Translations under genes and position numbers: made by a program
IMG/VR virus record: IMGVR_UViG_2718218098_000003
DNA from: a virus
Taxonomy: Duplodnaviria; Heunggongvirae; Uroviricota; Caudoviricetes
Direction: 5' to 3' (one strand)
DNA length: 51,596 nt
Part shown: piece after piece, positions 1,812-50,503 of the stretch
How positions within the stretch are numbered: the stretch's first letter is position 1
Layout: the number at the start of each line of letters is the position of its first letter
Notes under the pieces: generated by a model
What the model was told of the DNA's origin: nothing
The model's input: only the letters and a program-made list of their open reading frames with translations
Database searches by the model: none

Positions 1812-2064
1812 GTTTTAACTTCTCCAGTAACGGACTGTCTCTCCCTTGTCGCCCATTAGGCTGATGGTGTGTTATATCGGTATCAACCTTATTTGGGTTG
1901 ATATAGAAAGCTTCCGGAACCACCCTGTAACTCCTCCCGTGTAGTTCAGGTGCAGGATAAATGTTTCCATTCCTTGCCCATCGTCTCAGCGTTGATATTG
2001 ATGGTGGGTTATCCGGATATCTGAGTTTTCCCCACGTTTTGAGTGTCACAAGATTCATTGCCAT
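1777..2064 (-). CDS. xis: Excisionase (Xis-like); start may be the second ATG at 2058
   Basis: Small basic protein LVTLKTWGKLRYPDNPPSISTLRRWARNGNIYPAPELHGRSYRV, overlaps int start as in lambda. Confidence 0.7.
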   Translation of the reverse strand: MAMNLVTLKTWGKLRYPDNPPSISTLRRWARNGNIYPAPELHGRSYRVVPEAFYINPNKVDTDITHHQPNGRQGRDSPLLEKLKHAAEKIRSQFA

Positions 2065-2164
2065 ACCTCTTACGATATGACCGCCAGTAAATATACAGAA
2101 TACTGGCGGGTGTGGTTGATTTTTAATAATCAGCTATGAAGTTCTAATTTGTATATAATGCAAC

Positions 2165-2425
2165 TCACGAGGACAGAAGTTTCTCGCAATTAAAATTTAT
2201 CAGCTTTACTTTCTGCTCTCTGGACACGCCTGCTTCTTTTTTCCCTGAGAGCATTTTTTCGCATTCTGATTTCGTTAATTTAGATTTTGAATATCTTGTC
2301 CAGTTAGTAGGAGTGCCACCTTCTTTTTCAATAGTGGCAGTTATTTTATACATGAACACCTCCATTATTATTTCCAGTAGTTCGTTTATTCCATCTTTCG
2401 AGTGCTTCTTTTTCACTTCCACCAT
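2165..2425 (-). CDS. Hypothetical protein (early-left operon)
   Basis: 86-aa ORF between xis and lar-like gene; no recognisable motif; start uncertain. Confidence 0.4.
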   Translation of the reverse strand: MVEVKKKHSKDGINELLEIIMEVFMYKITATIEKEGGTPTNWTRYSKSKLTKSECEKMLSGKKEAGVSREQKVKLINFNCEKLLSS

Positions 2426-2552
2426 AGCCAGTTCGGGATTCGCATCCGTTGCATTTTGCCCGGTAATATCCTGAAATTGCTTTCACCGTAACAGATGGAC
2501 AACCACAAAACGGACATGGTTTAACATCGTCATATCTCATAATTTTTGTCAT
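2346..2552 (-). CDS. Lar-family restriction alleviation protein
   Basis: MTKIMRYDDVKPCPFCGCPSVTV...CNGCESR...ERWNKR; Cys-pair zinc-ribbon pattern typical of Lar; start taken at internal ATG 2552. Confidence 0.6.
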   Translation of the reverse strand: MTKIMRYDDVKPCPFCGCPSVTVKAISGYYRAKCNGCESRTGYGGSEKEALERWNKRTTGNNNGGVHV

Positions 2553-2596
2553 AAAAACTGTCTCACGTTGGCGGTGCATTACACCGCCAGGCTGAA

Positions 2597-3406
2597 TTAT
2601 TCTTCTGAATTATCGATTACACTGTATTCCCCGGTTAATACAGAGGAGTCTGCCGGATCGATTGTCAGTGGTTCCTTTTCATCCATTGATACTGCACGCT
2701 GGATTTCAATTGAGACAGGCAGGTATTTAAACAGGCGACGAATAGCCGTTTTTTTTGCCATTTCTTCCCAGTGAGTTACCCATGGCCCGTTATTACCAGC
2801 CTTACTCTGGCTGCGCACCAGTTCAATCTGTTTGCGCGTCATAACTTCAAACTGAGTCCCTCCGTCTTTCAGTCTTGCGACAGCATAGACGTGGGTCACT
2901 GGTGCATCTTCGTTTTCTCCCGGGCGGTGTATTAACTTTTCATCAAGGCCAAATTCAAAACTAAACTCGTCACCTTCACGGACAACACGGGCTGACAGGC
3001 TGGCGATTTGACCAGAACGGCGAGCCAGATCAATCATGCCGCGATAACCAATGATTAGCTGAACGTTCTTTTTACCGCTCTTTTCGTTTTTATTACCAAA
3101 AGGCAGTAAATATGCGTGGCCGAGGGCGCTACCTGGCTCAAGGCCGAGCTGTGAACACTGAACGATCGCACTGACAAAACTCATGGTGTCACAGTTTCCT
3201 AGCGCCGGAACCTTACGAATTTCTGTGGTGGCGATACGTATCATTCGTTCAGCCGTCATATGGCGTGGGAGAGCTGCTGCCAGTTGCTCTTTCATTGATG
3301 GCTGATTAATAAAGCTGATCACGTCGTTATTTTTTACTGCTGCTGGTGCACGGTTTCCCTGGGTTTTTTGCAGATCGGCTTTTGCGATAGGTGGTTGCTT
3401 AGTCAT
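2597..3406 (-). CDS. recT: Recombinase RecT (single-strand annealing protein)
   Basis: 269-aa product from [28 protein letters not shown]... matches recalled Rac RecT; SD aaggag upstream; overlaps recE end. Confidence 0.92.
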
Positions 3407-8079: not shown

Positions 8080-8499
8080 TTACTCCGGTGGGGGATTATC
8101 TTTAAGCCTGCCTCTCAAATATTTTTCTACATACTCATCGATTTCTTTTAGCCGGACTTCAAATAGCTCAATCATTCGTTGTTGTTCTGAGCCCGGTAGC
8201 TGGTTAAACAACTCAAGAAGTTTTCGTTGGGATTCATTTAACCACAATTCAGAAGATTCCTGTTCTCCAAATAGGAGCTCAGGAGGAGATATGCCAAGTG
8301 CCTTTCCCAATACGACAGCGTCATGCACTCCAACATTTCTGCTGCCCGCCTCATAGTTACCTATACGCGATTGCGTCCATCCGCAGATTTCAGCAAGTTT
8401 TCCTTGAGATAAACCAAGCTTCTGCCTGCGCTCTTTAAGACGCATTGCAATTTTGTCATTGAGCCTACTAGCGGCAATTTTTTCGTTTTCTTTTTCCAT
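8080..8499 (-). CDS. Prophage repressor, HTH XRE family (RacR-like)
   Basis: 139 aa with HTH LGLSQGKLAEICGWTQSRIGNYEAG; divergent to cro-like gene across an 8500-8595 operator region. Confidence 0.75.
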   Translation of the reverse strand: MEKENEKIAASRLNDKIAMRLKERRQKLGLSQGKLAEICGWTQSRIGNYEAGSRNVGVHDAVVLGKALGISPPELLFGEQESSELWLNESQRKLLELFNQLPGSEQQRMIELFEVRLKEIDEYVEKYLRGRLKDNPPPE

Positions 8500-8595
8500 T
8501 GCATCCTTGTATCACGAATCGTGATTTACATAAAACACAAAACAGCTTGACCATATAACACAAGTTGTGTTTAAAATTGTCATCGGAGGTTTTCA

Positions 8596-8838
8596 ATGAA
8601 CAAAATTTCAACATATCGAAAACAGCTTGGGCTGTCTCAAAGACAACTTGCTGTTCAGTTAGGGTGGATACAAAGCCGACTGGCAAATTACGAAGCAAAT
8701 TTTCGTACCCCTGGACTAGAGGAGTGCAGAAAAATTGTTTCTACCCTTAATCGGCTTGGCGCTCATTGTGGACTTGACGATGTATTCCCCCCAGACGGTA
8801 AGCATAGCGAAAACAGCATAGGAGCGGTTGATTCATGA
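8596..8838 (+). CDS. Cro-like HTH regulator (YdaS-like)
   Basis: 80 aa, HTH LGLSQRQLAVQLGWIQSRLANYEAN; SD ggagg; divergent from repressor. Confidence 0.7.
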   Translation: MNKISTYRKQLGLSQRQLAVQLGWIQSRLANYEANFRTPGLEECRKIVSTLNRLGAHCGLDDVFPPDGKHSENSIGAVDS

Positions 8839-9257
8839 AAATCAGGCATGAGCACATCGAATCAGTGTTGTTAGCCCTGGCAGCCGAAAAAGGGCAGGCG
8901 TGGGTCGCTAACGCAATTACTGAAGAATATCTGCGCCAGGGGGGCGGCGAATTGCCCCTTGTACCAGGCAAGGACTGGAACAATCAGCAGAATATCTATC
9001 ACCGTTGGTTGAAAGGTGAAACGAAAGCGCAAAGGGAAAAAATTCAGAAACTGATCCCTGCGGTTCTGGCAATTCTTCCGCGCGAGCTGCGTCACCGACT
9101 CTGCATCTTCGATACCCTGGAACGCCGTGCATTACTGGCGGCGCAGGAAGCGTTGAGTACGGCAATTGATGCGCATGATGATGCAGTCCAGGCCGTTTAC
9201 CGGAAAGCACATTTCAGCGGTGGCGGGTCGCCCGGCGATTCTGTCGTAGTGCATTGA
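8835..9257 (+). CDS. YdaT-family protein
   Basis: 140-aa ORF translationally coupled to the cro-like gene; family name from recalled Rac gene order, not sequence-verified. Confidence 0.55.
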   Translation: MKIRHEHIESVLLALAAEKGQAWVANAITEEYLRQGGGELPLVPGKDWNNQQNIYHRWLKGETKAQREKIQKLIPAVLAILPRELRHRLCIFDTLERRALLAAQEALSTAIDAHDDAVQAVYRKAHFSGGGSPGDSVVVH

Positions 9258-9334
9258 TTGAAATTAATCGTGCCGGATTGTTTTGTTCGGTATCAGTTAA
9301 ATGTAACGCTGCGAGCGTTACAAGGTGAAAACAA

Positions 9335-10465
9335 ATGGCTTCAAACTGGATAAAGCTCGAGGTTATTACGCCGGATAAGCCGGAAATATTCAGGCTTGCT
9401 GAGATTCTGAATATTGATCCAGATGCCGCATTAGGGAAGGTTATTCGCTTCTGGGCATGGGCGGATCAACAAATGATAGACGGTAATGCAGATTGTAACG
9501 CTCGCGGCGTTACAAAAAGTGCAATAGATCGCATTACTTTTATGGCTGGTTTTGCTGATGCGTTAATTCAGGTTGGATGGCTGGTCGAAAATGACGGTGG
9601 GCTTTCTCTACCTAACTTTGAACGTCATAACGGGAAAAGCTCTAAAAAACGGGCGGTTACAAACGAGCGAGTTACAAAAATACGCGAACTGAAACGAAAA
9701 GGTAACGCTGCCAGCGTTACACAAAGGGATCAAAAAGCGTTACCAGAGGAAGAGGAAGAGGAAGATATAAATACTGATCTAACCCATCCCAAACCCTTCC
9801 CTTCCGGAAGGGAGTTCCGGGATTTTGTGGCGGGAGTGCTTGAGGGGAGATTATCTGGCGGTACTGCAGCGGAATTTTGTAATTCTGCGGTGGTTGCGTT
9901 GCAGGCTGCTGGCCTGGATGTCTGTCGTGAGTATCCGGTGCCAGAGCGTGGTGACGGTTGCGGAGGGCGGATTGATATCGTCGTGACTGACAGGAACGGT
10001 GTCCGGTGTGGGATCGAGCTTGACCGAAATTCTCCGCGACAGAAATCACTGCTCAAAATCGGTGCTGTTGAAACCGGGATATGTGTCTTGCGGCGCAGTG
10101 ATATCGCAAGGCACACCGAGCAGGGAATTCTGGTTATCGGTGGGGCTGTTCGCCAGAAAAAATTTGACCCGTTGTCAGTTGATCTGCCCGACTGGTTGCC
10201 AGAAACACTCTGGCATGAGTGGGTCCAGTTCAGGCAGGCATTGCGAAAACCGATTCGAACGGAGCAGGGCGCTAACGGGGCGATACGGGAGCTGGAAAAA
10301 TTCCGCCAGCAGGGTTTTACACCTGAGCAGGTGATTCGACACAGTATCGCCAATGAATACCAGGGCCTGTTCGCGCCGAAAGGTGTTCGGCCTGAGACGT
10401 TGCTCCGACAGGTTAACACCGTCTCGTTGCCGGACAGTGCGATCCCGCCAGGCTTCAGGGGGTAA
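9335..10465 (+). CDS. Phage replication initiator / replisome organiser with an extra central domain
   Basis: N-terminus WIKLEVITPDKPEIFRLAEILNIDPDAALGKVIRFWAWADQQ resembles replisome-organiser N-domain; followed by DnaC-like loader; central ~100 aa RIDIVVTD...GIELD looks nuclease-like. Confidence 0.6.
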   Translation: MASNWIKLEVITPDKPEIFRLAEILNIDPDAALGKVIRFWAWADQQMIDGNADCNARGVTKSAIDRITFMAGFADALIQVGWLVENDGGLSLPNFERHNGKSSKKRAVTNERVTKIRELKRKGNAASVTQRDQKALPEEEEEEDINTDLTHPKPFPSGREFRDFVAGVLEGRLSGGTAAEFCNSAVVALQAAGLDVCREYPVPERGDGCGGRIDIVVTDRNGVRCGIELDRNSPRQKSLLKIGAVETGICVLRRSDIARHTEQGILVIGGAVRQKKFDPLSVDLPDWLPETLWHEWVQFRQALRKPIRTEQGANGAIRELEKFRQQGFTPEQVIRHSIANEYQGLFAPKGVRPETLLRQVNTVSLPDSAIPPGFRG

Positions 10466-10471
10466 CAGACC

Positions 10472-11218
10472 ATGAAAAATATTGCGACAGGCGGCGTTCT
10501 GGAGCGTATCCGCAGACTGACCCCACCACATGTAACCGCCCCATTCAGAACGGTTGCGGAGTGGCGTGAGTGGCAACTTGCTGAAGGCCAGAAACGTTGC
10601 GAGGAGATCAACCGCCTGAATCGTCAGTTGCGGGTGGAAAAAATTCTGAATCGCTCTGGCATCCAGCCGTTGCACCGTAAATGCTCGTTTGCGAATTACC
10701 AGGTGCTGAACGACGGCCAGCGATACGCGTTAAGCCAGGCGAAATCCATTGCCGATGAACTGATGACCGGGTGTACAAATTTTGCGTTCAGCGGAAAACC
10801 TGGTACCGGGAAGAATCACTTAGCGGCAGCTATCGGGAATCGCCTGCTGAAAGACGGTCAGACAGTGATTGTGGTTACCGTGGCTGATGTTATGAGCGCC
10901 CTGCACGCCAGCTATGACGACGGGCAGTCAGGCGAAAAATTTTTGCGGGAGCTGTGCGAAGTGGATCTGCTGGTTCTTGATGAAATTGGCATTCAGCGCG
11001 AGACGAAAAACGAGCAGGTGGTGCTGCACCAGATTGTTGATCGCCGGACAGCGTCGATGCGCAGCGTGGGGATGCTGACAAACCTGAACTATGAGGCCAT
11101 GAAAACATTGCTCGGCGAGCGGATTATGGATCGCATGACCATGAACGGCGGGCGATGGGTGAATTTTAACTGGGAGAGCTGGCGTTCGAATGTTGGTCAG
11201 CCAGGAATTGAGAAGTAA
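10472..11218 (+). CDS. DnaC-like helicase loader (IstB-like AAA+ ATPase)
   Basis: Walker [16 protein letters not shown], Walker [10 protein letters not shown]. Confidence 0.85.
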
Positions 11219-13520: not shown

Positions 13521-14541
13521 ATGAAATATACACCGGTTGGCGTTGATATCGCAAAACATCTGATTCAGGTTCACTTCATTGATGAGAACACAGGTGAAGT
13601 GGTGGATAAGCAACTTCGTGGCAGAGATTTTCTTGAATATTTCAGCAACCGGGAACCCTGCCTGATTGGTATGGAGGCCTGTGGAGGCTCTCAGCACTGG
13701 GCACGGGAGCTGACAAAGCTGGGGCATAACGTCCGCTTGTTACAGGCCCGCTTCGTTAAGGCATTCGTCATGGGAAACAAGAACGACGTGATGGATGCCC
13801 GGGCTATCTGGATGGCGGTTCAGCAGCCCGGTAAAGAAATTGCCGTCAAAACAGAAGAACAGCAGTCGGTACTGGTTCTGCACCGTACCCGCATGCAACT
13901 GGTGAAGTTCCGGACCGCACAAATTAACGCCCTACACGGGACGTTACTGGAGTTTGGTGAAACCATCCACAAAGGTCGGGCAGCAATGGAGCGGGAGTTC
14001 CCTGAAGCACTGGAACGAATGAAAGAGAGACTGCCACCGTATCTCATCACGGTACTGGAAAACCAGTATAAGCGGGTTGAATGAGCTGGACTCCCTGATA
14101 GAAGACATCGAAAAACAGCTTGCCAGCGTGGCGAAACAGAATGAGACCTGTAAGCGGTTGCTGGATATTCCTGGTGTTGGGCCACTTATTGCGACGGCAG
14201 CGGTGGCCACCATGGGGGAAGCATCAGCGTTTAAATCAGGGCGAGAGTTCGCGGCTTATGTTGGTCTGGTGCCCAAACAGACTGGCTCAGGAGGGAAAAT
14301 TCGCCTGCTGGGGATAAGCAAACGTGGTGATACATATCTGCGAACCCTGTTTATTCATGGCGCAAGGGCGGCAGCATTACTGACTAAAGAACCTGGTCCG
14401 TGGATAACCGAACTGAAAAAACGTCGTCCAGCCAGTGTGGCTATCGTCGCCATGGCAAACAAGCTGGCACGAACAGTATGGGCGATAGCTGCCCATGACC
14501 GTAAGTATGACAGGAACCATGTCAGTATCAGACCATATTAA
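13521..14541 (+). pseudogene. IS110-family recombinase/transposase, interrupted by a +1 frameshift near 14075-14080
   Basis: ORFs 13521-14084 and 14077-14541 together read as one ~340-aa protein (...LENQYKRV / NELDSLIEDIEK...); single extra base in cgggttgaatgag. Confidence 0.65.
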
Positions 14542-14788
14542 TCGCTGATACCGATAAATAATGAACTCTTAACAAAAGGGTGAATGCTGAAAGGTTGCTC
14601 TGGCGGCCCGAGTGATGACAACGACAGGTAAGACCGTGACCTGATAAACCTGAATAACAGCCGGGATATAAAGTCCGTAAGGAGAATAAGGCTCAGGTCA
14701 GCGAATCTCATAGTGGCCCGCAGCTCTGGCTGCAATAAGGCCGGATACAGAGCTGCAACTAATCGTCGATGTCAGAACAACGGATGCC
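14542..14788 (+). ncRNA. Candidate IS-associated structured non-coding RNA (possible bridge-type guide RNA); may instead lie in 13300-13520
   Basis: 247 bp non-coding directly after the recombinase with an 8-bp stem gcagctctg...cagagctgc (14720-14756) and other complementarity; inference only. Confidence 0.25.
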
Positions 14789-15340
14789 TTGCAAACGGGG
14801 ATGCGTTCATACAGAACTGTTATGACCACTATTACCAGAGAAAACGCGGAGATTAAATCATTCATCACTGGTTTCCTGAGCGACCCGGCGCACGATATTC
14901 AATCTTCAGACAGCTTGCTTGCCAATGTGTTTCGTATCGCACTGGCGTCACTGGAAGCAGAGCCAGTGGCGTGGAAGGCAACCTTCACGCAAATTGACAA
15001 TGAATATAATACGTTCACTGCTCTGTATTCTGACAAAGCAGAAGTCGAACGGTGGGTGCGATTGCATGAAATAGGTGACTTTCGGGCAGAAATAACACCG
15101 CTTTACGCAGCGCCGTCAGCGCCGGTCGCTCCAGATGGTTGGATAAGCTGTAGTGAGCGAATGCCAAAAGATGGTCAGCACGTAATTATTTTATGTGATG
15201 GCGCATTCGTTCTTTATGCGCAATATCGGGACGGTGAGTTTTTTGATGTCGTCCGCAATGGTGAGGAATTCTTCGAAACGCAGAGCCGCAATGTAACCCA
15301 CTGGATGCTGCTACCGGAGCCGCCGCAGGAGGTGAACTGA
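14789..15340 (+). CDS. DUF551-type phage protein
   Basis: 183 aa; C-terminal WISCSERMPKDGQHVIIL...THWMLLPEPP pattern; start uncertain. Confidence 0.5.
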   Translation: MQTGMRSYRTVMTTITRENAEIKSFITGFLSDPAHDIQSSDSLLANVFRIALASLEAEPVAWKATFTQIDNEYNTFTALYSDKAEVERWVRLHEIGDFRAEITPLYAAPSAPVAPDGWISCSERMPKDGQHVIILCDGAFVLYAQYRDGEFFDVVRNGEEFFETQSRNVTHWMLLPEPPQEVN

Positions 15341-19232: not shown

Positions 19233-19307
19233 GGCCCTTTAGCTCAGTGGTGAGAGCGAGCGACTCATAATCGCCAGGTCGCTGGTTCAAATCCAGCAAG
19301 GGCCACC
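19233..19307 (+). tRNA. tRNA-Ile (anticodon CAU, lysidine-type; ileX/ileZ-like)
   Basis: Cloverleaf read by hand; anticodon loop ctCATaa; close to recalled E. coli ileX. Confidence 0.8.
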
Positions 19308-19309
19308 TG

Positions 19310-19386
19310 TCGTCACTAGCTCACCTGGAAAGAGCATCAACCTTCTAAGTTGAGCGTACGAGGTTCGAGTCCTCGGTGGCGGTCCA
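19310..19386 (+). tRNA. tRNA-Arg (anticodon UCU)
   Basis: Anticodon loop ctTCTaa, T-loop ttcgagt, CCA encoded. Confidence 0.65.
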
Positions 19387-19388
19387 GT

Positions 19389-19464
<76 letters not shown>

Positions 19465-19467
19465 TAT

Positions 19468-19542
<75 letters not shown>

Positions 19543-47920: not shown

Positions 47921-48296
47921 ATTTACCACGCCCGCAGTACTGGAGATGCTCGGTGATTACCGCTGGCGGCTGGTTGAACCTTTTGAGTTCTGGCAGACAG
48001 AGCGTCCGGATGATGTGATATATGTACCGGAGGGGTACGTGACAGACCTTGCGAGCGTACCACGTATTCTGTGGTCCGTATTTCCGCCACACGGGCGTTA
48101 TGCCAAAGCGGCGATAATACATGACTGGCTGTACGACAATGCGCTCCGGACAAAGCGCGAAGCGGACAAGATATTTCTCGACGCGATGTGTGTTCTGGGT
48201 GTTCCCCGCTGGCGCAGGGTGCTGATGTATGCTGCCGTCAGGCTGTTTGGTCGGGGTAATTACGGAGAGGTACGGTATAAGCCACTGGAGAAATGA
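47910..48296 (+). CDS. DUF1353-type phage protein
   Basis: 128 aa; family name from memory of similar tail-fibre-adjacent proteins, not verified. Confidence 0.45.
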   Translation: MMSKFTTPAVLEMLGDYRWRLVEPFEFWQTERPDDVIYVPEGYVTDLASVPRILWSVFPPHGRYAKAAIIHDWLYDNALRTKREADKIFLDAMCVLGVPRWRRVLMYAAVRLFGRGNYGEVRYKPLEK

Positions 48297-48298
48297 AT

Positions 48299-48327
48299 AA
48301 AAAAAGCCCCCGCACGATGAACGGGGG
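48299..48327 (-). terminator. Minus-strand intrinsic terminator H1
   Basis: Plus strand aaaaaaagcccccgcacgatgaacggggg. Confidence 0.5.
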
Positions 48328-48417
48328 ATCGCAAAAACACGCCTTTAGGTGATTTATGAGTATACACTCCGGAAAGGGATACTACTGATTCCAAATAAAT
48401 AAAGCAATTAACGGAAT

Positions 48418-48544
48418 GTGAATTATTTAACTGAAACCGAGAAAAGGTTTTTATTTTAAATGTATATTATGATGAGCTAAAAATTAGCATGGTAATTAAA
48501 AGTTTGTAATATTTATAAATGCAATGAAAAGGAGTTGGTTTCGG
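48418..48544. repeat. AT-rich ~130-bp repeat, copy 1
   Basis: gtgaattatttaactgaaaccgagaaaagg...agcatggtaatta...aaaaggagttggtttcgg; ~80% identical to copy 3. Confidence 0.6.
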
Positions 48545-48578
48545 GGAACATCCGCCACGCTGGTATTATACCAGGGCA

Positions 48579-48764
48579 GCGATAATACATGACTGGCTGT
48601 ATGACAATGCGCTGAGGACAAAAGCGGAGGCAGACCGGATATTTCGAGACGCAATGAAGGTCCCGGGTATTCCCCGCTGGCGCAGGATATTGATGTATGC
48701 TGCCATCAGGCTGTTCGGTCGGGGTAATTATGGAGAGGTACGGTATAAGCCACTGGTGAATTGA
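48579..48764 (+). pseudogene. 3' fragment of a second DUF1353-type gene (no start codon)
   Basis: Translates AIIHDWLYDNALRTKAEADRIFRDAMKVPGIPRWRRILMYAAIRLFGRGNYGEVRYKPLVN, about 85% identical to the C-terminus of 47910-48296. Confidence 0.6.
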
Positions 48765-48765
48765 A

Positions 48766-48798
48766 TAAAAAAAGCCCCTGCACGGTGGTGAACAGGGG
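48766..48798 (-). terminator. Minus-strand intrinsic terminator H2
   Basis: Plus strand aaaaaaagcccctgcacggtggtgaacagggg. Confidence 0.5.
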
Positions 48799-48886
48799 TG
48801 CTAATAAAATTACTCTGTAATAACTGCATCTTATAAGGTAAACATCGTTATAGTATAAGGTATGTATAAAAAAAGCAATCGGCATA

Positions 48887-49015
48887 GTGTGAGTTATTTA
48901 AATGAAAATGAGAGATGACTTTAATTTGAATTGAATAATATAGCCGACTAAGAATTAGTCTTTCAATTAAAATGTTGCAATGTTTTTTAATGCAAAAAAG
49001 AACTGGTTTCGGTAA
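48887..49015. repeat. AT-rich ~130-bp repeat, copy 2 (more diverged)
   Basis: gtgtgagttatttaaatgaaaatgag...aactggtttcgg. Confidence 0.5.
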
Positions 49016-49033
49016 GCATCAGGAGAAAAAGGT

Positions 49034-49066
49034 AAAAAAAAGCCCCGCACAGAAAAAAAGAGGGGC
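49034..49066 (-). terminator. Minus-strand intrinsic terminator H3
   Basis: Plus strand aaaaaaaagccccgcacagaaaaaaagaggggc. Confidence 0.45.
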
Positions 49067-49146
49067 TGAGTCAAAATTATTCTGAAATTAATAAGGATAG
49101 TTCGCAAATTATATTACTGAATCTGAGTGAGCAGAGCAATTGTATG

Positions 49147-49277
49147 AGTGTGAATTATTTAACTGGAATCGAGAAAGGATTTTAATTTTAATTACATATT
49201 ATGACGAGCTACCAATTAGCATGGTAATTAATGATGCATGGCATTTTTAAATGCAATAAAAAGGAGTTGGCTCTATG
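49147..49277. repeat. AT-rich ~130-bp repeat, copy 3
   Basis: gtgtgaattatttaactggaatcgagaaagg...agcatggtaatta...aaaaggagttggctctatgg. Confidence 0.6.
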
Positions 49278-49294
49278 GAATGTCAGGAGAAAAA

Positions 49295-49326
49295 TAAAAA
49301 AAGCCCCGTGCAGACTGCACGGGGGG
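49295..49326 (-). terminator. Minus-strand intrinsic terminator H4
   Basis: Plus strand aaaaaaagccccgtgcagactgcacgggggg. Confidence 0.5.
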
Positions 49327-49706
49327 TCAAAAGAAGGCTTGCCCTATGCTATAGGAAGATTGTTGTAGTTTGTCCATGAAGATACAGGGGCAATATTACT
49401 AAAGGTCATGTTAAGAGGCAATCCAAAGAATGAAATTTTATGCCAGGTATGCTCCATGATAATTTAAGTTAAATTAATAAGGTAATTAATATGTTGATAA
49501 TCAATTTAAGACAAAAAAACCATGCAGCAAACGTACTGCATGGGATATCAAATGTAAGAGAGTAGTAATGTAGCGAAAAGATAATACAGGTATTTACAGA
49601 AAAATAAAACAAAGTGAATGCAACGTAGATTAATTAAATGATTTTTTCATCTTTTAACAATAAGAAGGGTGGCGACAGGCTACTGTGAAGTTGAGTGTGT
49701 CCGGAT

Positions 49707-49735
49707 AAAAAAATCCCCGTCAGCCTGCACGGGGA
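49707..49735 (-). terminator. Minus-strand intrinsic terminator H5
   Basis: Plus strand aaaaaaatccccgtcagcctgcacgggga. Confidence 0.45.
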
Positions 49736-49936
49736 TGAAAGTATCAGAAGTTACACCATTTTTTATTATTTATGGAGGTTACCACAAAGCATGTTACTTA
49801 ATGTTTTTTGAGAAGGCAATCACCTGTTCGAAAAAAATAACCTGAGCGCAGGAAATACATGCGAGAGTTATAAATGTCTGACTTCTTTATTTTAATTGAA
49901 ATAATTTGAAGTGAATTTATTAGGTAAATGTCAGCT

Positions 49937-49975
49937 AAAAAAAAAGCCCCATACAGATATGCTCAGTGTATGGGG
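49937..49975 (-). terminator. Minus-strand intrinsic terminator H6
   Basis: Plus strand aaaaaaaaagccccatacagatatgctcagtgtatgggg. Confidence 0.45.
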
Positions 49976-50503
49976 AAATCGGATTATAGAATCAAAAAAG
50001 AGGTTGTGATTTTGACGTATGAATAATACTGAAATTTTTTCACGGAAGAAAGCAAAATCTTCGTAGCGTGGAATGCAAGAAATATTATAAGTGCACAGCA
50101 GTATTCAGGATTAATAAGAATCTCTCGCGTTGGGGCACTTGCCATGCCTGAATTCAGATTGCTAATAATTCACCAGTACTGCCATAAATCGTAAAAAGAA
50201 CCGCAGACACGTCGCATACAGGAACGTGCCACGGCTGGCTGATGGACGTTCGATAGCGCGAGTTTGAATGAAAATCAGCCGGAGGTGATTTTACATAATT
50301 GTTGCGGAATCATTCAATATAGGGATTGCTTATTTCTGCCTGGATTGGTCTGAAATAGTCCCGAAATTTTCTCTAAAAAACTCGAAAAAAATGGTAACTA
50401 ATTGAATGCATTAATATGCAATGGTACGTGTTTGGGATTAAAAGATGAGCGTAATTTTGCTTAACACATTAATTTAAAAAGGGTTTCTTGTTTGTTGACG
50501 AAA

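Follow-up and report, generated by a model that had tools for sequence, protein, structure and literature searches.

The replication initiator gene of the virus record IMGVR_UViG_2718218098_000003, a Rac-like lambdoid prophage of Escherichia coli, was found to carry an additional in-frame coding segment between its two initiator modules. Coordinates are positions in the whole 51,596-nt (51.6-kb) stretch of DNA, referred to below as the window. The gene (9335-10465, plus strand) is of the YdaU type, and the inserted segment, by its modelled fold, belongs to the PD-(D/E)xK nuclease superfamily. The initiator type and the nuclease fold are each known; their combination is recurrent and undescribed. 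We take an active nuclease, tethered to the replication origin and serving replication, to be the best explanation, and consider its chances to be about even. The parts of the gene are listed here, with the evidence for each in brackets (ORF, open reading frame; AF2, AlphaFold2).

9335 to 10465, plus strand: intact gene of a YdaU-type replication initiator, long allele (ORF listing; PHROG 2509)
9335 to 9781, plus strand: N-terminal module, residues 1-149, a presumed origin-binding domain followed by a basic segment and by a linker containing a Glu run (PHROG)
9782 to 10156, plus strand: in-frame insert, residues 150-274 (alignment with short alleles)
9806 to 10141, plus strand: folded PD-(D/E)xK nuclease-like domain, residues 158-269 (AF2, Foldseek, conservation, OkrAI alignment)
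9929 to 9931, 9974 to 9976, 10016 to 10018 and 10022 to 10024, plus strand: codons of the acidic tetrad E199, D214, E228 and D230, respectively
10184 to 10462, plus strand: C-terminal DnaT-like domain, residues 284-376 (phmmer against the PDB; PHROG)

The ORF listing gave an intact frame of 376 aa from ATG to TAA. An initial annotation, made from the sequence alone, had proposed a central domain inserted into a replication initiator, and comparison with short alleles showed that the insertion is real at the DNA level. In the protein alignment, residues ~150-274 stand in for an 11-residue linker of a 262-aa allele, while outside the insert the two proteins are 94% identical. At the DNA level the junctions with the short allele are sharp, at ~9777 and ~10157. 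The alignment with shorter homologues also showed that the central region is no standard part of the initiator family.

Among E. coli genomes the long allele is rare. The gene had a megablast match in 1513 genomes, only 38 of which covered at least 80% of it; the typical match came in two pieces with a span of 789 nt compared to 1131 nt for the window gene. The insert DNA was found in 40 of 5426 complete E. coli genomes, and the window-type N-terminal module in 685-786. The long-allele frequency is thus 5-6%, and ~95% of the alleles of the same initiator are without the insert.

We observed that nucleotide differences within the insert rarely reach the protein. One comparison of alleles gave 14 nucleotide differences with one amino acid change, and another gave 11 with none. 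An uninterrupted frame of 376-378 aa was present in every long allele examined. By this substitution pattern, the insert is evidently translated and under purifying selection. The E. coli inserts have diverged by 2.4-3.7% between alleles, roughly as much as the flanks. The N-terminal flank differed at 2 of 442 nt between a short and a long allele, compared to 24 of 442 nt between two long alleles. The presence of the insert is therefore incongruent with flank similarity, and the best explanation is an accessory module exchanged by recombination. No target-site duplications or flanking repeats were seen at the insert junctions.

An intein was considered and ruled out by the junction residues (the insert starts with T150-H-P and ends with R-Q274, followed by K-K-F) and by the PD-(D/E)xK fold. 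Pfam scans of the initiator and of the domain gave no intein or HINT match.

The initial annotation had likened the middle of the protein to a PD-(D/E)xK-type fold on account of the motif GRIDIVVTD...GIELD...K, which is present at residues 211-219, 226-230 and K237. Structure prediction and a Foldseek search of the central region gave a nuclease fold and no disordered linker. The single-sequence AF2 model of the whole initiator was uninformative (pLDDT 45), and an alignment of 52 domain sequences was used instead. The model built from this alignment had a pLDDT of 91.9 and a pTM of 0.85. Its helices (H) and strands (E) follow the order H-H-E-E-E-H-E-E-E and contain the alpha-beta-beta-beta-alpha-beta core, with elements H29-42, E46-53, E62-69, E75-81, H87-93 and E98-103.

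The Foldseek matches in the PDB were dominated by PD-(D/E)xK nucleases, with probabilities up to 0.98-1.00; they included Bax1, AF1548, Exo5, McrC, the R2 endonuclease, NucS/EndoMS, Cas4, Card1/Can2, SfiI and EcoO109I. Among the predicted viral structures of BFVD, the best match was a free-standing homologue from the Shiga toxin (Stx) phage phi191 (E 3.5e-9) and the second a haloarchaeal-virus protein named 'PD-(D/E)XK nuclease', followed by DUF2726, Mrr-type and other restriction-endonuclease proteins. The sub-threshold Pfam matches of the 52 domain sequences all fell into the nuclease clan. The most frequent was REase_MTES_1575 (PF18741; 22 of 52 members at E<=1, best E 2.9e-5), followed by BamHI, Mrr_cat, Hjc, NERD and NucS_C. 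The BamHI family (PF02923) was matched by four of the 52 homologues (best E 7.4e-4), and the window domain was not among them. For REase_MTES_1575, the window domain scored 11.9 bits (E 0.24), below the gathering score of 38.2 bits. By these families' own thresholds, the domain sequence falls outside BamHI, MTES_1575, Mrr and Hjc. REase_MTES_1575 comprises E-x-D nuclease domains similar to those of the Vsr/DUF559 group, which presumably shares the D...E-x-D signature on consecutive strands.

In Pfam, NCBIfam and PADLOC, the domain had no significant match that would name it; the PADLOC defence models had no family at E<=1 for either the whole protein or the domain. PHROG 1347, of 'unknown function', matched residues 157-270 as well as all 52 aligned members.

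A profile search of PDB sequences aligned E199, D214, E228 and D230 with E71, D86, E99 and E101 of OkrAI. These OkrAI residues are catalytic and equivalent to E77, D94, E111 and E113 of BamHI (PMC3025578), enzymes in which E-x-E or E-x-D is an active configuration (PMC3025578). Strand 2 of the window domain carries D214 and strand 3 carries E228, and the third motif position is held by D230 rather than by a lysine. The fold proposed by the initial annotation therefore stands, while its lysine at the third position does not, E-x-D being found there. Over 154 aligned domain sequences the tetrad was conserved at 87% (E199), 96% (D214), 98% (E228) and 98% (D230); within the 81 fused proteins alone it was at least 90% conserved. 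We also found conservation of an R205-G-D207-G loop and of a P234-R235-x-K237-S238-x-x-K241 helix, both specific to the insert family and unlike REase_MTES_1575. K237 and K241, on this following helix, could substitute for the motif lysine. As judged from the residues, an all-carboxylate site of the BamHI/OkrAI type predicts two-metal, Mg2+-dependent phosphodiester cleavage.

The likeness to OkrAI and BamHI comprises the core fold class, the one-to-one tetrad and an acidic residue at the usual lysine position. The differences are in size and setting: the window domain, of ~112 aa, is far smaller, is embedded in an initiator and has no methyltransferase partner. Its last tetrad position is Asp, where OkrAI and BamHI have Glu, and the match of OkrAI to the domain profile was weak (E 0.54).

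The two modules flanking the insert identify the protein as the replication initiator that the initial annotation had supposed it to be, together with the gene order and the names carried by its alleles in RefSeq (YdaU family, or 'phage replication initiator YdaU family protein'). The initiator matched PHROG 2509, a 'replication initiation protein' family, with E 3.8e-85 in two separate stretches, the best of which aligned residues 1-152 with profile positions 1-149 of 277; PHROG 9474, of the same description, likewise covers residues 1-152. A Pfam scan of the window initiator found no family at E<=1, so there was no match to DUF1376 (PF07120), and Phage_rep_O was not matched either. Relatives of the N-terminal module do match DUF1376, and despite the missing DUF1376 score the initiator belongs to the YdaU type, as judged from the homology of both flanks. 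DNA binding by the N-terminal module is presumed. The Glu-run linker at the end of this module varies in length, with EEEEEE in the window (9746-9766) and EEEEEEEE in strain UMNF18 (gene at 2048-3184 in locus numbering).

The C-terminal domain (residues 284-376) matched two DnaT entries of the PDB in phmmer searches, 2ru8 ('Primosomal protein 1', E 1.7e-4) and 9zbt (DnaT, E 6.6e-4), as well as PHROG 6451 ('primosomal protein') and PHROG 678 ('replication initiation O-like'). By sequence, the C-terminal domain of DnaT is its homologue. This agrees with the loader-interaction region placed here by the initial annotation, and a contact of the domain with the loader is probable. The tail of the initiator, PDSAIPPGFRG (residues 366-376, 10430-10462), is nearly the same as the extreme C-terminus of E. 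coli DnaT, PDSQIPPGFRG; the shared PDSxIPPGFRG tail suggests that both dock onto a replication protein of the host by a common short motif.

The initial annotation had left iteron-like repeats of an origin unresolved; we found three palindromes and several half-sites in and just upstream of the gene. The perfect 19-bp palindrome GTAACGC-N5-GCGTTAC occurs three times in the window, compared to 0.11 occurrences expected. The region 9250-9750 has nine GTTAC/GTAAC sites, the densest 500 nt of the window. The candidate elements, none of them assigned to a strand, are the following.

9303 to 9321: palindrome 1, 14 nt ahead of the ATG; may be an initiator site or an operator for autoregulation
9495 to 9513: palindrome 2, within the N-domain coding region
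9654 to 9745: candidate iteron block, with palindrome 3 (9702-9720) and GTTAC half-sites at 9656, 9671 and 9739
9746 to 9781: tract GAGGAAGAGGAAGAGGAAGATATAAATACTGATCTA, 36 nt, purine-rich (78%) and AT-rich (64%), encoding the Glu-run linker

All three palindromes occupy conserved positions in the short as in the long alleles. The tract is a candidate unwinding element, and its 3' edge is where the insert starts. By their pattern and their likeness to the lambda origin, the palindromes and the tract may function as an origin. Lambda O and its origin share with the window gene a two-domain initiator and a linker encoded by the origin or, in the window, by the candidate origin, and here the 19-bp palindromes are likewise followed by an AT- and purine-rich tract. 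Unlike in lambda, the palindromes are not tandem, their distances being 192 and 207 nt.

A second case of origin adjacency was found in the unrelated O protein of the Providencia phage PSTCR7lys. Within its O gene, the stretch 2332-2460 (in locus numbering) has four iterons of ~23 nt, similar to TTAGCYAAGTYAGCTAA and spaced by 20-24 nt, and then an A-rich tract, a layout that by pattern is a textbook lambda-type origin. The nuclease insert of this gene begins ~40-50 nt past the A-rich tract. Thus, the insert adjoins the presumed origin in two unrelated initiators, the YdaU-type protein of the window and the O protein of PSTCR7lys.

The recurrence of the domain was assessed with HMMER in 1.84 billion representatives, clustered at 50% identity, which were searched exhaustively. 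This search was made because a word-indexed search with the domain alone returned only five near-identical fragments. We detected 296 homologous clusters at E<=0.001. About half of the best 150 clusters were free-standing proteins of 100-140 aa, while the remainder had an N-terminal part before the domain. Wherever there was such a part, the domain followed it (83 of 83 proteins; 68 with both flanks and 15 with the N-terminal flank only). A C-terminal flank only was seen in 11 proteins, several truncated sequences among them.

The N-terminal parts of the 83 fused proteins formed 23 unrelated clusters. Their Pfam-named domains were DUF1376, HTH_36, Phage_rep_O, DUF6291 and MarR-like, and the N-domains are of the winged-helix type. 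DUF1376 was matched by eight of 81 fused relatives (best E 1.8e-29). The C-terminal parts formed 31 clusters, including DnaT-like and Phg_2220_C domains. Nuclease domains that are 69-91% identical can follow unrelated N-domains. Downstream genes encode a DnaC-like loader or DnaB helicases. For example, in PSTCR7lys the domain lies within an HK97-type O protein (Phage_rep_O, E 1.2e-37) encoded upstream of a DnaB helicase. This was the only one of 399 phage records to have the insert, and its nearest relative (86% identity) is without it.

In one metagenomic phage contig (4381-7514), the nuclease and a DnaT-like C-domain form a separate ORF of 223 aa, with a 169-aa ORF before it and DnaC-like and DnaB genes after it. 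The 169-aa ORF is possibly the split-off origin-binding part.

The free-standing homologue heads a module of a superfamily 2 (SF2) helicase and a primase in Eru1-type Stx2a phages, Fels-1 and the Klebsiella phage KPP5665-2 (for example, at 2426-2803 in PhiR12_3, 2402-2770 in Fels-1 and 2273-2770 in KPP5665-2, each in its own locus numbering). In ~100 Stx-phage records, a homologue of ~125 aa was the first gene of such a module, with a RadD-like SF2 helicase and a Toprim primase. The Eru1 Stx2a carriers include the O104:H4 and O103:H25 outbreak types. The papers defining the Eru modules name the helicase and the primase, not the small upstream gene, and we know of no origin-binding protein known or named in the Eru1 replication module. 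A uniform replication context for all free-standing homologues was also considered, and it is contradicted by three metagenomic phage contigs.

The best PDB fold match of the domain was Bax1 (6p4w_B, probability 0.98), but with a template-modelling (TM) score of only 0.39. As in the Bax1-XPB pair, a helicase is close by: an SF2 helicase gene immediately follows the genes of free-standing homologues. The helicase beside them matched RadD with E 1.3e-16 and XPB with E ~1e-5, the latter in the C-terminal motor domain only. The Bax1-XPB analogy for the free-standing copies is a lead only.

The mechanism that we consider best supported, at about even chances as said above, would use three modules. 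Module 1 (residues 1-149) would bind the 19-bp palindromes, which lie within its own gene and shortly before it, and module 3 (residues 284-376, DnaT-like) would hand over the host DnaB via the adjacent DnaC-like YdaV. Module 2 (residues 158-269) would be an autonomous Mg-dependent endonuclease grafted into the flexible linker, whose coding DNA would itself be the AT-rich edge of the origin. The covalent link to the origin-bound N-domain would keep the nuclease beside origin DNA, where it would most likely make a strand break or cut a branched or unwound intermediate. Such a cut might supply a 3' end or a site of entry, or turn circle-to-circle replication into rolling-circle replication.

Several observations weigh against an active nuclease serving replication. 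Since ~95% of the alleles of the same initiator are without the domain, it is dispensable for initiation as such. The canonical lysine of (D/E)xK is replaced by Asp. The Foldseek E-values in the PDB were modest (best 2.4e-3) with TM scores of 0.34-0.42, and the Pfam matches of the 52 domain members were all below the gathering scores. Three free-standing homologues, on the metagenomic phage contigs mentioned above, lie outside obvious replication modules. In the literature on YdaU, DUF1376 and PDDEXK initiators, we found no paper describing the domain.

The main rival explanation, a serious one that we nevertheless consider rather unlikely, makes the insert a selfish homing-type or competition module. 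The N-domain would find the insert-less origins of co-resident or co-infecting phages, and the nuclease would cut them beside the iterons. The broken linker would then receive a copy of the module through repair of the RecET/Red type, or the competitor would merely be disabled. Since the insert takes the place of the target sequence, the module's own allele would be safe from cutting. Such an 'origin-tethered homing nuclease' would be an intein-less, in-frame selfish module and also a weapon between phages sharing an origin type, a proposal that we likewise hold to be unlikely. It resembles homing endonucleases and inteins in that a nuclease is inserted sporadically and in frame into an essential gene of a phage, close relatives of which are without the insert. 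It differs from inteins in its fold: since this is PD-(D/E)xK rather than HINT, the domain stays in the mature protein.

Much of the distribution fits homing. The insert is patchy among near-identical alleles (40 genomes compared to 685-786 with the same N-domain), with the N flank differing at only 2 of 442 nt between a short and a long allele and at 24 of 442 nt between two long ones. The sporadic pattern recurs in the unrelated HK97-type O protein (1 of 399 records), the insert always adjoins the AT-rich edge of the candidate origin, the catalytic residues are conserved, recE and recT are in the same prophage, and initiation can do without the domain, most alleles lacking it. Conversely, the order of N-terminal part, nuclease and C-domain is kept over 23 N-clusters and 31 C-clusters, which fits a selected function better. 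The divergence of the E. coli inserts, about that of the flanks, gave no sign of a recent sweep, and both target-site duplications and intein junction residues are absent.

Another explanation is a catalytically silent scaffold, the fold being used only for DNA binding or to let the initiator dimerise or oligomerise on the origin, as is the case for other inactivated PD-(D/E)xK domains. Folds of restriction enzymes by nature bind DNA as dimers and in a sequence-specific manner, and a silent domain would agree with the missing canonical lysine (E-x-D), with its tolerance as an optional insert and with the Asn that the Fels-1-type free-standing homologue has at the position of E199. However, inactivated nuclease folds normally lose their catalytic carboxylates, whereas here the tetrad occupies the catalytic positions of BamHI and OkrAI with 87-98% conservation over ~150 clusters at ~30-45% identity. 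Moreover, E-x-E and E-x-D are active in these enzymes (PMC3025578). We consider a silent scaffold improbable.

The last explanation arises from the public annotation. Each of the five long-allele records that we examined (M19, M9, cq9, E9 and UMNF18) has the gene split by the Prokaryotic Genome Annotation Pipeline (PGAP) and RefSeq into two 'incomplete' pseudogene coding sequences, with no annotation on the insert; in UMNF18 the C-terminal piece alone is annotated. The pieces correspond to 9335-9781 and 10178-10465 of the window (10001-10447 and 10844-11131 of the M19 locus). A disrupted pseudogene, in which 342 extra bases of junk or foreign sequence broke ydaU, would account for these calls but is hardly credible and was rejected given the intact frame and purifying selection, as well as the synonymous bias, the confident fold, the 296 homologous clusters and the window initiator's own place on record as a full-length cluster representative among the 1.84 billion. 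The pseudogene calls suggest a systematic mis-annotation.

The nearest known relatives of the window gene are the Rac YdaU alleles. At the DNA level they have 94-97% identity with the window gene over its N-terminal 149 and its C-terminal ~100 residues, and they share the gene order repressor, cro, ydaT, ydaU, ydaV and DUF1627. The 125-residue insert of the window protein is absent from the 262-aa allele and from the 285-aa YdaU of K-12, which has a different N-domain and matches the window gene in the last ~258 nt only. The O proteins of lambda, HK97 and Stx phages have no nuclease module.

The genes around the initiator are listed below.

8080 to 8499, minus strand: cI-like repressor, upstream of the initiator
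8596 to 8838: cro, upstream of the initiator
8835 to 9257: ydaT (YdaT-family gene), directly before the initiator
10472 to 11218, plus strand: YdaV-like AAA+ helicase loader of the DnaC/IstB type (IstB_IS21, Bac_DnaA; annotated ydaV)

The loader ORF matched the Pfam families IstB_IS21 (E 5.9e-19) and Bac_DnaA (E 2e-8), and a DUF1627 gene lies downstream of it. The position of the initiator directly upstream of a DnaC-like loader gene confirmed its place in the early-right operon. A promoter and terminator scan of 8400-10600 gave nothing exceeding shuffles.

The initiator gene is 100% identical in E. coli M19, M6, M9, M11 and M15. The mouse strains M6, M9, M11 and M15 match the first 25 kb of the window with 100% identity, over all 25000 nt in M6 and over 24999 nt in M9, M11 and M15. 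We also made some observations elsewhere in the window. Overlapping ORFs at 13521-14084 and 14077-14541 correspond to a single gene for a 339-aa IS110-family transposase in M19 (14187-15206 of the M19 locus), which suggests a 1-nt indel or frameshift. Four phage-borne tRNA genes (19233-19542) have the anticodons CAT, TCT (Arg), TGT (Thr) and TCC (Gly); the tRNA with the CAT anticodon is Met according to ARAGORN and Ile according to RefSeq. The GC content is 0.385 at 48001-50000, compared to 0.53-0.60 over the preceding 20 kb, and this low-GC stretch may be foreign cargo or a moron region at the prophage end.

In the usual view, theta-type initiators, lambda O and YdaU among them, do no more than bind and melt the origin and recruit the helicase. 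A conserved, probably active endonuclease in hundreds of such initiators, as their sequences indicate, lies outside this picture. The domain has been invisible in annotation, with no Pfam or NCBIfam model, a PHROG of 'unknown function' (1347) and pseudogene calls in RefSeq. In highly virulent Stx2a phages, the first gene of the Eru1 replication module is its free-standing homologue. If the selfish role is true, the domain would represent a new route for the spread of a nuclease within an essential gene without protein splicing. If the nuclease does cut at the origin, it would be a candidate source of the strand break for rolling-circle replication or for helicase entry in some temperate phages.

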